A DNA stretch of 64,000 bases from Escherichia coli. GTDB taxonomy: Bacteria > Pseudomonadota > Gammaproteobacteria > Enterobacterales > Enterobacteriaceae. The stretch lies in NCBI RefSeq assembly GCF_050320075.1, contig NZ_CP190022.1; one strand, written 5' to 3'. The translations under genes and the position numbers were made by a program. Every line of letters starts with the position of its first letter. Position 1 is the stretch's first letter. The notes under the pieces are model-generated. The model was not told the origin of the DNA. It worked only from the letters and a program-made list of their open reading frames with translations, and made no database searches. Shown here one piece after another: positions 1-6,120 of the stretch.

Positions 1-873
1 GTGGCGGCCCTGAACCAGACCTCATTTACTGAAAGCACATACCGTCAGGTAAAGAACCCGAATCCGGTATTCACACCCCGTGAAGGTGCCGGGACGCTGA
101 AGTTCTGCGAAAAACTGATGGAAAAGGCCGTGGGCTTCACCTCCCGTTTTGATTTTGCCGCGCATGTGGCGTATGCCCGTTCGCGCGGCCTGCGCCGGCG
201 TATGCCGCCGGTGCTGCGCCGCCGGGCGATTGATGCGCTGCTGCAGGGGCTGTGTTTCCACTATGACCCGCTGGCCAACCGCGTGCAGTGCTCCATCACC
301 ACGCTGGCCATTGAGTGCGGACTGGCGACGGAGTCTGAGGCCGGGAAACTCTCCATCACCCGTGCCACCCGTGCCCTGAAGTTCCTGGCTGAGCTGGGGC
401 TGATAACCTACCAGACGGAATACGACCCGACAATTGGCTGTAATATCCCGACCGACATCACGTTCACGCCGGCACTGTTTGCCTCACTCGATATCTCAGA
501 AGAGGCAGTGGCTTCCGCACGCCGCAGCCGCGTGGAATGGGAAAACAGGCTGCGCAAAAAGCAGGGGCTGGATGCGCTGGGTATGGATGAACTGATAGCG
601 AAAGCCTGGCGTTTTGTGCGCGAGCGTTTCCGCAGTTATCAGGCAGAGCTTAAGTCCCACGGCATGAAACGTGCCCGTGCGCGCCGCGATGCAGGCAGGA
701 CCCGTCAGGACATTGTCACCCTGGTGAAACGGCAGCTGACACGTGAAATCGCGGAAGGGCGTTTCCGGGGAAGCCTGGAGGCCGTGAAGCGCGAAATCGA
801 CCGTCGCGTGAAGGAACGCATGATAATGTCGCGGAACAACAACTACACACGGCTGGCCACAGCCTCACCCTGA
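1..873 (+). CDS. repA: Replication initiator RepA (IncFII-family RepA1/RepZ type), 5'-partial at window edge
   Basis: ORF runs from window start to TGA at 871-873; translation ([33 protein letters not shown]...[13 protein letters not shown]) matches the IncFII RepA family as I remember it; true start lies upstream of the window. Confidence 0.9.
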
Positions 874-2595: not shown

Positions 2596-3210
2596 CTATC
2601 GATGGTTGATTGCGGCGAGCACATCCTCTGTCTCTTTCATCCTGGCGTTATAACGCTGCGTGTGTTTTTCAAGTTTTGCCTGCGCATGCAGCGCTTCTTC
2701 TTCCGTTACAGTTCCATGAACTTTGCCATCCAGACCATAACGCGGCGTACCTGCGACTGATATACGCTGCAGATATTTGTAACCGCCAGTAATCATTCTT
2801 ACAGCACAATTCCATTCTTTTACAGTTAGTCCACACTCAGGACTGGCCGAAATAAAAGCCATGACATCCTTTGAGATGCCTATTTTAAATGCATGATATC
2901 CCCCCTCTTCAGCCCGTAACTGAGGGAATGTTTTTTTAACACAGTCCAGACTGTGTCGGATAAACTCATGATTCCATCTATTGTTCTTCTTTTTTTTCTT
3001 CTTCTTACGTCCTGTTTTTTTCTGTTGTTCCGGGGAACCGGCCACTGTGGCTGGTATTTCAGGAGGTAATGAGTCGGTTTTAAATTCCATTACTGGCGCT
3101 GGTTTTATATCATCAGGAACAGCCTGTACGGCATCATCCTGGTGAAAAAGAATTCGTCTTTTTTTCTTAATAATAACAACAGGTGACGGTTTCTTTGTGA
3201 CACTGCCCAT
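2596..3210 (-). CDS. Hypothetical protein with an internal poly-lysine tract (about 204 aa from ATG at 3210; track ORF extends to GTG at 3246)
   Basis: ORF 2596-3246 in track; ATG at 3210 preferred because GAGGTG sits 6-7 nt upstream; product has a K-rich run encoded by a poly-purine tract and a C-terminal globular part I cannot place. Confidence 0.5.
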   Translation of the reverse strand: MGSVTKKPSPVVIIKKKRRILFHQDDAVQAVPDDIKPAPVMEFKTDSLPPEIPATVAGSPEQQKKTGRKKKKKKKNNRWNHEFIRHSLDCVKKTFPQLRAEEGGYHAFKIGISKDVMAFISASPECGLTVKEWNCAVRMITGGYKYLQRISVAGTPRYGLDGKVHGTVTEEEALHAQAKLEKHTQRYNARMKETEDVLAAINHR

Positions 3211-3309
3211 ATACACACCTCTGCGTATCGTTAATCTGTAATTCACGACATACAGATAGTATATATCTAAGTCAGCAAAGTCACCAACAGAATAATGATG
3301 ATATTTATT

Positions 3310-4020
3310 TCATGACTGTTCACGAATTATCACTCTGGATTCCTTCCTGGTGACATAAGTACAGTTATCAGGTACATCTTCCATAATAAAAGACATGGCT
3401 CCAATTTTTACATTACTGCCTATTTTTACGTTAAGCCCGATAATACACGTATGGGCACCTACATCGACATTATCACCAATAACGATATAATTCTCTCTGC
3501 TGTCAGATTCCTTTTCGCCAATGGTCGTATTCTGCCGTATAATCACATTCTCACCGATCTTTACATTTCCGTGAATGACGACACCTGAATGGTGGGGCAG
3601 CACGAGGCCTTTACCAATCTGCGCCCCCAAACCAATATCACATCCATACTTTGCCATAAGCGCATTTTTTATCTTGATCGCACATTTTCGTTGTTTTTTA
3701 TTCCCCGATATATACATTTCATTAGCCAGACGCCACCACAGAAGAAAACCTCTCTGCCTCTGCATACCGTTCCTGATAAGCCGGTGAAAAACAATCTTAT
3801 CCCGCATGATAACTTCTGCTTTCCAGTATTCCAGAAGATGACGTTTTTTTCCTGATAATAAAAATGTGCCAATATGGAAATAAGAAATAGGATTTTTTAT
3901 CAGCATACGCAAATTTTCAGATAACAATGAATACAGATGTATTTTATATACACAGATAAAACCGCGCAACAGACATAAATATGACAGTAGCCATGAAAAA
4001 GCAGAGTGTCCTTGACCCAC
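3310..4020 (-). CDS. Hexapeptide-repeat acyl/acetyltransferase (serine O-acetyltransferase-like left-handed beta-helix); start uncertain (internal ATG at 3906 would give about 198 aa)
   Basis: C-terminal half is a classic hexapeptide repeat run (GCDIGLGAQIGKGLVLPHHSGVVIHGNVKIGENVIIRQNTTIG...IGDNVDVGAHTCIIGLNVKIGSNVKIG); track ORF start at 4020 abuts the miniature transposable element. Confidence 0.6.
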   Translation of the reverse strand: MGQGHSAFSWLLSYLCLLRGFICVYKIHLYSLLSENLRMLIKNPISYFHIGTFLLSGKKRHLLEYWKAEVIMRDKIVFHRLIRNGMQRQRGFLLWWRLANEMYISGNKKQRKCAIKIKNALMAKYGCDIGLGAQIGKGLVLPHHSGVVIHGNVKIGENVIIRQNTTIGEKESDSRENYIVIGDNVDVGAHTCIIGLNVKIGSNVKIGAMSFIMEDVPDNCTYVTRKESRVIIREQS

Positions 4021-4026
4021 GATATT

Positions 4027-4312
4027 GGGGTCCGCTTGGAATTCGGAAATTTTCCCACGCTAAGAGAATTGAGTTGAACGAGTGGTTACATCCAGGCCAG
4101 CTAACTCACTGAACGTAAAGGCTGTACGAAATGTTCTGACCGTCCGATAACCGTTTGGCTTACTTCCGTACATTCCCTTGCGTGGATGTACAGAATTGTA
4201 CGATTTCGGACACCAAAACCGCTGTTGTCCCGCCATTCTGGCGATTCCTGAAAGTTATTTGACTAAAAAACAGTCTTAACGTGGTTTATTTTCCGAATTC
4301 CAAGCGGACCCC
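4027..4312. mobile_element. Tn3-family-derived miniature inverted-repeat element (TIME-like), 286 bp, no transposase
   Basis: 38-bp terminal inverted repeats beginning GGGG and ending ACGCTAAG / ACGTTAAG (4027-4064 and 4275-4312, outer 23 bp identical), the hallmark of Tn3-family ends; interior too small to encode a protein; no 5-bp target duplication visible. Confidence 0.6.
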
Positions 4313-4675
4313 TGTACACGCCCCGATACTGAACTGGTCAACACTATGCTGGATAGCTCTGTCGAAACGTTAAATGCTGGCGAACGACCGGTGATACACA
4401 GTGACAGAGGTGGGCATTATCGCTGGCCAGGCTGGCTGGAAAGAGTGAATGCAGCAGGTCTTATTCGCTCAATGTCCCGTAAAGGATGTTCACCTGATAA
4501 TGCCGCATGCGAAGGCTTTTTCGGCAGACTGAAAACGGAAATGTATTATGGGCGTAAATGGTCGGGCATCACGCCAGAAAAGTTCATGCAGCAAGTGGAT
4601 GCTTACATCAGATGGTATAACGAGCGGCGTATAAAATTCTCGCTGGGTGCCGTCAGCCCCAAAATGTACCGCTAA
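4313..4675 (+). pseudogene. IS3-family transposase (OrfB) C-terminal fragment, 5'-truncated at the miniature element
   Basis: In-frame translation from 4313 (CTRPDTELVNTMLDSSVETLNAGERPVIHSDRGGHY...SMSRKGCSPDNAACEGFFGRLKTEMYYGRKW...YIRWYNERRIKFSLG) carries the DDE-domain C-terminal motifs of IS3/IS150-group transposases; the N-terminal two thirds are absent. Confidence 0.7.
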
Positions 4676-5139
4676 CAATGCGGGCTGGAATGATAAAGCA
4701 GTCCAGGAAATCGTCCGCATCCCCAAAACGGCCAATAATCTTGGCGTTGACACCACCGCCAGATCAGTGGCAGAAGTGCCGTCTGCGGGCAGACCTGCGG
4801 CCGGGACCAGCGGCAGTACGACGACTTCTGCCGCACGCTGTTCTGCCCGGAGGCGGTCCTGTTCTGCCAGCAGCAGAGGCTGTGCCACGGCCCGGCCGGC
4901 GTCCGTCAGCTCCACTGCCTGCTGCAGGTTCAGTTTTTTTCTGAATTTTAACTGTATTTGTCCTTTATTGTTCTTGTTTGTTCCCTGGTGTGCTATTTGA
5001 GTCGGTTTTTGTCTTCATTTTTCTTTATTTTTCTGTTTGTGGACGATATCAGGTCTTTACTGATGCGTGTTTTTAGGTGATAATCTTTTTCGGCGCCATA
5101 TTTTTCTAAAAAAATCCATTTTATTCTGTGAGGTTCTGG

Positions 5140-6120
5140 ATGCGTATCTTTGTAGATGACGGTTCTACCAACATCAAACTGGCCTGGGTTGAAGACGGTG
5201 CAGTGAAAACGTTAATTAGTCCGAATAGTTTTAAACCGGAATGGTCTATGACGCTGCAGGGACTGACTGATGCCACTATACCCGCTTCCGCAAACTATGA
5301 GATTGATGGAGAGAAATACAGCTTTGATCAATTGAGTCCGGATGCAGTGCGCACCACAGAAACGCGTTATCAGTACAGCGACGTTAATGTGGTTGCTATT
5401 CATCATGCGTTGATGCAGTCAGGTATTGCTCCGCAACCTGTTGATATTGTTGTGACTTTACCTTTAGGTGAGTATCTGGATGAGAACGATCAGCCAAATC
5501 TGGCTAATATCGAACGTAAGAAAAATAATGTCAGACGAGCTGTAACAGTTCAGGGGCGTGAAAACTTTACCATTCGTAAAGTCAGTGTCTTGCCTGAGTC
5601 CGTGCCTGCCGGTTTTGACGTGCTGAAAGATCTGAATGATCTGGAGTCGCTGTTGATCGTTGATATCGGTGGAACGACCCTTGATATTGCACATGTCCGC
5701 AGCAAAATGTCCGGTTTCACAAAAACTTATTGTGACCCCAAGACAGGCGTTTCCATCATTACTGAAGCAGTTAAGCATGCGATGGATGTGAATGTGAGTA
5801 CACGAACCAGTTCTTATTTTGCAGATCGTCTAATCCAGGGCCGGGATGACAATGAATTCCTGACTCGTTATATCCCGAATGCAGAACAGCGTGAGCAGAT
5901 CCTGACAGTATTATGTGACCGGGAAAAAAAACTGCAGCATCGTGTGGCGGATTCAGTAGGACGCTTTGCTGGTTTTACTCATGTTATGGTTGTTGGCGGT
6001 GGTGCCAGCCTTGTGGCTGGGGCAGTAAAAAAAGCGACAGGAGTGGGTGATAACCGTTTCTTTGTCAGTGACAATCCTCAGTTCGATCTGGTGTTGGGAA
6101 TGATGGCAATGAAGGGATGA
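5140..6120 (+). CDS. parM: Actin-like partition ATPase ParM/StbA
   Basis: Translation MRIFVDDGSTNIKL...DIGGTTLDI...VMVVGGGA matches ParM/StbA actin-fold motifs; GAGG RBS 8 nt upstream of ATG 5140 (track ORF begins at GTG 5128). Confidence 0.9.
   Translation: MRIFVDDGSTNIKLAWVEDGAVKTLISPNSFKPEWSMTLQGLTDATIPASANYEIDGEKYSFDQLSPDAVRTTETRYQYSDVNVVAIHHALMQSGIAPQPVDIVVTLPLGEYLDENDQPNLANIERKKNNVRRAVTVQGRENFTIRKVSVLPESVPAGFDVLKDLNDLESLLIVDIGGTTLDIAHVRSKMSGFTKTYCDPKTGVSIITEAVKHAMDVNVSTRTSSYFADRLIQGRDDNEFLTRYIPNAEQREQILTVLCDREKKLQHRVADSVGRFAGFTHVMVVGGGASLVAGAVKKATGVGDNRFFVSDNPQFDLVLGMMAMKG

Follow-up and report, generated by a model that had tools for sequence, protein, structure and literature searches.

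In the IncI1 plasmid pUA1135, RT-PCR placed ydfA, ydeA, ibfA, and proQ in one transcription unit within the hypervariable repA-par region (PMC12111858), and ydeA is a known point of rearrangement in IncI1 plasmids (PMC8004404). Intact copies of ydeA are found on other plasmids, typically beside a ProQ/FinO gene near repA (PMC12111858). Analysis of a 64,000-nucleotide stretch of Escherichia coli DNA (contig NZ_CP190022.1, referred to here as the window) revealed a short piece of the same gene between the remnant of an IS3-family insertion sequence (IS) and parM. We are highly confident that this piece, at 4753–4931, is a non-functional internal pseudogene fragment of the ydeA family, limited to codons 71–129 and left by two rearrangements. 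Records used for comparison are designated L001, L002, and so on.

Distribution and predicted structure of YdeA

The names YdeA protein and YdfA protein (the 85-aa upstream partner) were taken from UniRef entries and follow R64/IncI1 nomenclature. The parent gene, very common on enterobacterial plasmids, was found on at least 5,000 PLSDB plasmids, with at least 4,964 of the tblastn matches near full length, and those matches that were inspected were labelled 'hypothetical'. An exhaustive HMMER scan returned only 220 YdeA clusters at 50% identity, some of whose members carry C-terminal extensions of 100–230 aa. The intact parents of 196–198 aa are preceded by a ydfA gene of 85–89 aa, which is present in L002, L003, and L007 and is broken by a Tn3-type miniature element in L006. 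Across the family, intact YdeA proteins vary in length from 169 to 214 aa, and L002 holds two ydfA-ydeA pairs that are paralogous and lie 2.9 kb from each other. The slot between ydeA and proQ also varies, being occupied by an IbfA-like ATPase, a 350-aa unknown protein or, possibly, the acetyltransferase of this window; in L012 the variable gene encodes an IbfA-like AAA ATPase (PADLOC HEC-04 match, 9e-42). With this breadth, and with ibfA, an anti-phage gene, occupying the slot just downstream of ydeA in some plasmids, the parent family is of greater interest than the stump described below. A genome-wide association study of IncK2 plasmids (PMC12987596) found a 'ydeA' to be chicken-associated and identified it with the MFS L-arabinose exporter YdeA of the chromosome; should the gene in question be the R64-type plasmid gene, this is a collision of names.

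YdeA was modelled with AlphaFold2 from a 33-sequence alignment (pLDDT 88). The model comprises a winged helix (residues 9–78), a long helix (80–104), a disordered Pro/Ala linker (105–126), and a small β-rich domain (127–190). YdeA is a predicted DNA-binding protein of the winged-helix type whose linker leads to a small C-terminal domain. The modelled fold is the winged helix-turn-helix of the MarR, HxlR, and PadR regulators, whereas the sequence falls outside the profiles of those families. Profile searches of Pfam, NCBIfam, and PADLOC with full-length YdeA and YdfA gave no match above threshold, with weak echoes of AbiEi_4, PaaX, and JetA-like winged helix-turn-helix domains. The best sub-threshold Pfam matches for YdeA were AbiEi_4 (15.3 bits against a cut-off of 25, E = 0.022) and PaaX (12.7 bits, E = 0.16); NCBIfam yielded nothing meaningful, and a sequence search of the PDB found no match.

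An internal piece of ydeA and the ORF that crosses it

The G+C content over 4700–4940 is 62–68%, compared with ~45–50% in the IS DNA and 33% in the DNA upstream of parM, and the region is thus compositionally foreign to both neighbors. The fragment within it (Table 1) consists of codons 71–129 of a 196-aa protein with one additional nucleotide on either side. In-frame translation of 4754–4930 matches YdeA residues 71–129 encoded by L006 (pNMBU-W12E19_01; WP_001401589.1) at 58 of 59 positions (E = 3e-36), and the best nucleotide match is the intact gene of the same plasmid (177 bp, 98.9% identity, E = 1e-86), from which the fragment differs by one synonymous substitution and L74Q. On several IncF plasmids the matching region lies in a minus-strand gene of 196–198 aa annotated "hypothetical protein".

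Table 1. Positions of the features at the ydeA fragment and of the intact parent genes (window positions unless a record is named)
Feature	Position	Strand	Description
repA	1..873		Start of the window
ProQ/FinO gene	2596-3246	minus	
Hexapeptide acetyltransferase gene	3310-3906	minus	
Tn3-derived miniature element	4027..4312		286 bp, no ORF; 39-bp Tn3-family-type inverted repeats GGGGTCCGCTTGGAATTCGGAAA...CACGCTAAG
IS3-family IS, right-hand part	4314..4752	plus	439 of 1,661 bp; 98.6% identical to complete copies in L010 and L011; rve_2 and rve_3
Transposase C-terminus ORF	4346-4675	plus	rve_2 and rve_3 integrase-core matches
Minus-strand ORF	4490..4915	minus	From the ORF list; GTG start, 141 aa, begins MELTDAGRAVAQPLLLAEQDRLRAEQ
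IS non-coding terminal sequence	4676..4752	plus	Defined by complete copies; inverted repeat ~4700-4752, ending GGCGTTGACA
ydeA-family internal pseudogene fragment	4753..4931	minus	179 bp, homologous to intact YdeA; encodes NLQQAVELTDAGRAVAQPLLLAEQDRLRAEQRAAEVVVLPLVPAAGLPADGTSATDLAV
12-bp unit CTGCGGGCAGAC	4783..4794		1 copy in the window, 2 in CP088867 (L001 ~4184), 3 in NZ_JBUXMJ010000003 (L005 ~5070)
GTG of the minus-strand ORF	4913..4915	minus	Internal Val76 codon of ydeA by alignment (ORF residue 1 = V76)
Right breakpoint	4928..4931		4-bp microhomology GTTC, common to ydeA (L006) and the parM-upstream backbone (L008)
T-rich region upstream of parM, probable parC/promoter	4932..5139	plus	95-99% identity to many IncF plasmids; short direct repeats; promoter-like site 5056-5084
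parM	5140..6120	plus	ParM annotated in L001, L004, L005
Intact parent ydeA genes	L006 2796-3386; L002 2285-2881, 5155-5778; L012 6001-6591		

Missing from the fragment are 70 N-terminal codons (residues 1–70) and 67 C-terminal codons (residues 130–196). On one side the homology ends at 4931, which leaves out the N-terminal winged helix-turn-helix (model residues ~9–78), and DNA upstream of parM is found where the overlapping or abutting ydfA partner of 85–89 aa would lie; on the other it ends at 4753, at the IS end, which leaves out the C-terminal β-rich domain (~127–190). When set against the AlphaFold2 model, the fragment retains one strand of the wing together with the long helix and linker, and contains no domain in full. 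As the remnant of a gene, it is significantly homologous to full-length YdeA. No Pfam match was obtained with any ORF across the fragment region, and profile searches of Pfam, NCBIfam, and PADLOC with the fragment itself gave nothing above threshold, as did an Rfam search of window positions 3800–5300 at E ≤ 1. Nothing points to a function for the fragment, there being no Rfam match and a sole terminator-like hairpin at chance level; it is ordinary plasmid debris and is presumably not expressed.

An earlier note on this DNA had proposed that a minus-strand ORF starting at 4915 and running into IS3-family sequence holds, in its first ~78 codons, the N terminus of a gene. Both the ORF and the remnant of a protein gene on that strand are real, the similarity to YdeA (53/54 and 58/59 aa; 98.9% at the nucleotide level) being far beyond chance, and the protein search suggested as a check finds clear YdeA homologues. 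The assignment to an N terminus fails, as the fragment aligns to the interior of a 196-aa protein. Codons 1–54 of the ORF correspond to YdeA residues 76–129 (53/54 identical, E = 3e-32), so that 54 of the ~78 codons are derived from the gene and codons 55–78 are the IS terminal repeat read backwards. The range given for the stump, 4676–4915, likewise includes IS terminal repeat over one third of its length (4676–4752) and stops 16 bp short of the end of the gene-derived part.

There is next to no probability that the ~78 codons are a true N terminus whose gene lost its 3′ part to the IS. The ORF does start with GTG and enter IS sequence, and the IS end is indeed one breakpoint, but every intact homologue has residues 1–70, which this fragment lacks, the homology continues above the GTG to 4931, and RefSeq describes the piece as 'missing N-terminus and C-terminus'. 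Moreover, no full-length homologue with a natural N terminus of the form MELTDAG... was found among the aligned full-length sequences or the listed alignment ranges. Upstream of the GTG, the reading frame as read from the sequence stays open to 5015 without a start codon, and past residue 129 the ORF is antisense IS sequence. The 141-aa ORF is an accident, in which 54 inherited ydeA codons, entered at an internal Val codon, are followed by 87 chance-open codons antisense to the IS.

The long helix that follows the winged helix-turn-helix forms the dimer interface in related winged-helix regulators. A chimeric peptide expressed from GTG-4915, with the helix and linker of YdeA and an antisense-IS tail, could in principle interfere with a co-resident YdeA through helix 80–104, which is retained and confidently modelled; the frame is open for 141 codons, and there are thousands of ydeA plasmids that could share a cell. 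This is nevertheless very unlikely, as no promoter-like site was found on the minus strand within 4300–5200, the GTG is preceded only by a weak AGG 4–6 nt away rather than a strong ribosome-binding site, the arrangement is rare (one of 72,556 PLSDB records and one of 5,426 complete E. coli genomes), and a repeat within it drifts in copy number. The chance that the coding strand is instead the plus strand, through ORFs 4647..5000 or 4678..4944, is negligible. Both frames are open in the stretch of 62–68% G+C, but neither matches a family, both span the IS end as well as the junction with the cassette, and the frame to which they are antisense encodes a protein 98% identical to that of a widespread gene. 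The earlier note's view that the plus strand looks less protein-like is borne out.

The same architecture, including the stump, is found in two other plasmids, CP088867 (typed IncK2/Z) and NZ_JBUXMJ010000003.1 (L005). In the latter, RefSeq already carries the fragment as a pseudo-CDS (MMP75_RS26865; 'hypothetical protein; incomplete; missing N-terminus and C-terminus'), and the fragment is thus known as a pseudogene from the public annotation of a near-identical plasmid. Among the three plasmids, which are otherwise 98–99% identical, a 12-bp unit located where ydeA encodes the linker varies in copy number. Such a change is typical of slippage, as expected in unconstrained DNA. The frame across the fragment is still open, as the 12-bp changes are in frame and there is a single non-synonymous change from the best parent allele. 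However, an open frame in only three near-identical plasmids would say little about selection.

The two breakpoints

The remnant on the left belongs to the IS3 family by its DDE/rve transposase and 5′-TG...CA-3′ inverted repeats, its right end ...GTTGACA being that of complete copies with left ends TGTCAGCG. Two such copies, one interrupting an SLT transglycosylase gene (L010) and one inside IS100 (L011), define an element of 1,661 bp that starts TGTCAGCGCC and ends GGCGTTGACA, with termini TGTCA.../...TGACA and 4-bp target duplications (ATAT and GCTG). These ends and duplications place the end of the window's IS at 4752, rather than at the transposase stop codon (4675) where the earlier note had drawn the boundary. 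In a megablast search of complete E. coli genomes, the matches between the window and hundreds of IS3-family copies end at 4752. At the junction, ydeA reads …gttcagctCCACCGCC… and the window reads …GGCGTTGACA/CCACCGCC…, with the IS end abutting the first base of codon 130.

In L002 and L003, an isoform of the IS with 93% identity lies in the same orientation 12–13 bp past the stop of an intact ydeA, and a deletion adjacent to such an IS is therefore conceivable. However, the IS and the ydeA allele of the window are each 98–99% identical to common alleles that occur apart, and only ~93% identical to the pair in L002, which on sequence grounds would favor an IS that inserted into ydeA independently. 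A simple deletion of 216 bp with respect to CP057226 was also considered and is ruled out by the true IS end at 4752, as the position of the IS differs and there is no internal deletion.

The left 1,222 bp of the IS copy are absent, and its truncated edge is abutted by a miniature element (4312/4314) that shows no target duplication in the window (ATATT vs TGTAC). Copies of the miniature element were found in L005 (two), L006, L007, and L009 (two). The flanks of five copies were compared; a single one (L005 1812–2103) has a clean 5-bp target duplication (TTTAT), and the others, the window's included, sit at rearrangement junctions. The acetyltransferase ORF extends up to GTG-4020 (236 aa, 3310–4020). 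Annotated orthologues are 198 aa long, with a start that corresponds to ATG-3906, and the miniature element accordingly lies ~120 bp, not 6 bp, upstream of the acetyltransferase start.

The earlier note attributed the truncation to the IS, which is correct for the 3′ breakpoint and overlooks a second one on the 5′ side. There, ydeA in L006 reads …CTGCAGGTTC/ggag, the IncFII backbone in L008 reads …cattGTTC/AGTTTTTT (also given as /AGTTTTTTCTGAATTTT), and the window joins them as …CTGCAGGTTC/AGTTTTTTTCTGAATTTT. From exactly 4928 onward, the window and the parM-parR module found on many IncF plasmids are 95–99% identical. The junction creates a terminator-like site on the plus strand, a hairpin at 4917–4929 followed by a T-run at 4934–4940, which might terminate or insulate read-through from the IS into parM. 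We regard this role as highly improbable: the stem is weak (five pairs, three of them G-C), one site was found where 0.9 is expected by chance, and the same T-run is present in other plasmids with unrelated left flanks.

The left edge of the parMRC cassette has the form GTTC(C)AG, then T6–7, then CT(G/T)AATTTTAACTG, and was located at 4928–4950 in the window, ~3001 in L004, ~2048 in L008, and ~2827 in L009. In the window it reads GTTCAG, T6–7, CTGAATTTTAACTG; TTCAG and CTGAA form a 5-bp inverted repeat flanking the T-run. At least four unrelated left flanks are joined to this edge: the ydeA fragment of the window, a TetR gene in pHN32wt, a fragment of the ISCro1 transposase (tnpC) in IncFII plasmids, and a Tn3-type miniature element plus 42 bp in pSTEC299_1. 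The GTTCAG/T-run edge could thus be a preferred recombination breakpoint by which parMRC moves between plasmid backbones, an unlikely proposal under which the ydeA stump would be one scar of cassette exchange. Alternatively, the junctions may be independent deletions from one ancestral arrangement with an IS66 fragment, their clustering being fortuitous.

As a further check, the earlier note proposed a search of related plasmids for an intact gene ahead of parM. None was found there in the records examined, the position being taken in other plasmids with this parM by TetR, the ISCro1 fragment, or the miniature element. A TetR-parM order was considered as the ancestral arrangement and rejected, as the TetR gene of pHN32wt is itself fused at the boundary, whereas in typical IncFII plasmids the same TetR sits at a distance of 1.4 kb. 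In pHN32wt (L004 2471–3031), the annotated ATA start of the TetR/AcrR gene falls inside the shared DNA upstream of parM. The gene appears to be a fusion that arose through loss of 1.4 kb present in typical IncFII plasmids, where it has its own start (L008).

Origin of the fragment and comparison with described systems

The order in the window is repA, ProQ/FinO, acetyltransferase, miniature element, IS remnant, ydeA stump, parM. In order and orientation, ydeA followed by one variable gene and proQ matches the arrangement of R64/pUA1135, L006, and L012, and by this analogy the stump fits an in situ relic of a ydeA gene that once stood upstream of the acetyltransferase-proQ pair. A relative with an intact ydeA-acetyltransferase-proQ order was looked for and not found, the relatives carrying a RelE/ParE-Phd pair or a GNAT gene at this position.

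The order of events that we infer begins with an intact ydeA near the replication region, probably within a ydfA-ydeA-(variable gene)-proQ transcription unit. On the 3′ side, the IS would most likely have inserted into ydeA at codon 129/130, insertion being the reading preferred here over an IS-promoted deletion. The left 1.2 kb of the IS would have been lost later, presumably together with the 3′ part of ydeA, at a junction that is now occupied by the Tn3-type miniature element lacking a target duplication. On the 5′ side, illegitimate recombination at GTTC would have joined codon 71 to an IncF-type parMRC upstream region and so removed the N-terminal winged helix and ydfA.

The main consequence is for annotation: the 141-aa ORF does not merit a gene call, the IS should be drawn to end at 4752, and 4753–4931 should be entered as a pseudogene fragment of ydeA. 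The fragment is also a small marker of the plasmid's assembly from an I-complex replicon (closest relative typed IncK2/Z) and an IncF-type parMRC cassette.

The fragment can be compared with several described systems. As regards the HxlR, MarR, and PadR regulators, the C-terminal domain of YdeA has no counterpart in the profile matches, and the fragment has no recognition helix. In NZ_JBUXMJ010000003.1, the fragment also lies between the same IS remnant and parM, with 98% identity over 1.2 kb, and differs in having three copies of the 12-bp unit rather than one. In IncI1 plasmids, ydeA is a recurrent breakpoint in the hypervariable repA-par region, as in a substitution that runs from 'within the ydeA gene' as far as rfsF (PMC8004404); as far as the text of that paper describes it, the breakpoints and the inserted DNA are different. 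With the intact ydeA of R64/pUA1135 (PMC12111858, PMC8004404) and the IncF orthologues WP_001401589.1, WP_033809052.1, and WP_000194568.1, the fragment shares 98% aa identity over residues 71–129. Unlike R64/pUA1135, the window keeps 59 of 196 codons, with the winged helix, the C-terminal domain, ydfA, and the operon promoter absent; as in R64/pUA1135, the fragment lies on the same strand relative to the downstream ProQ/FinO gene, with one variable gene between them.
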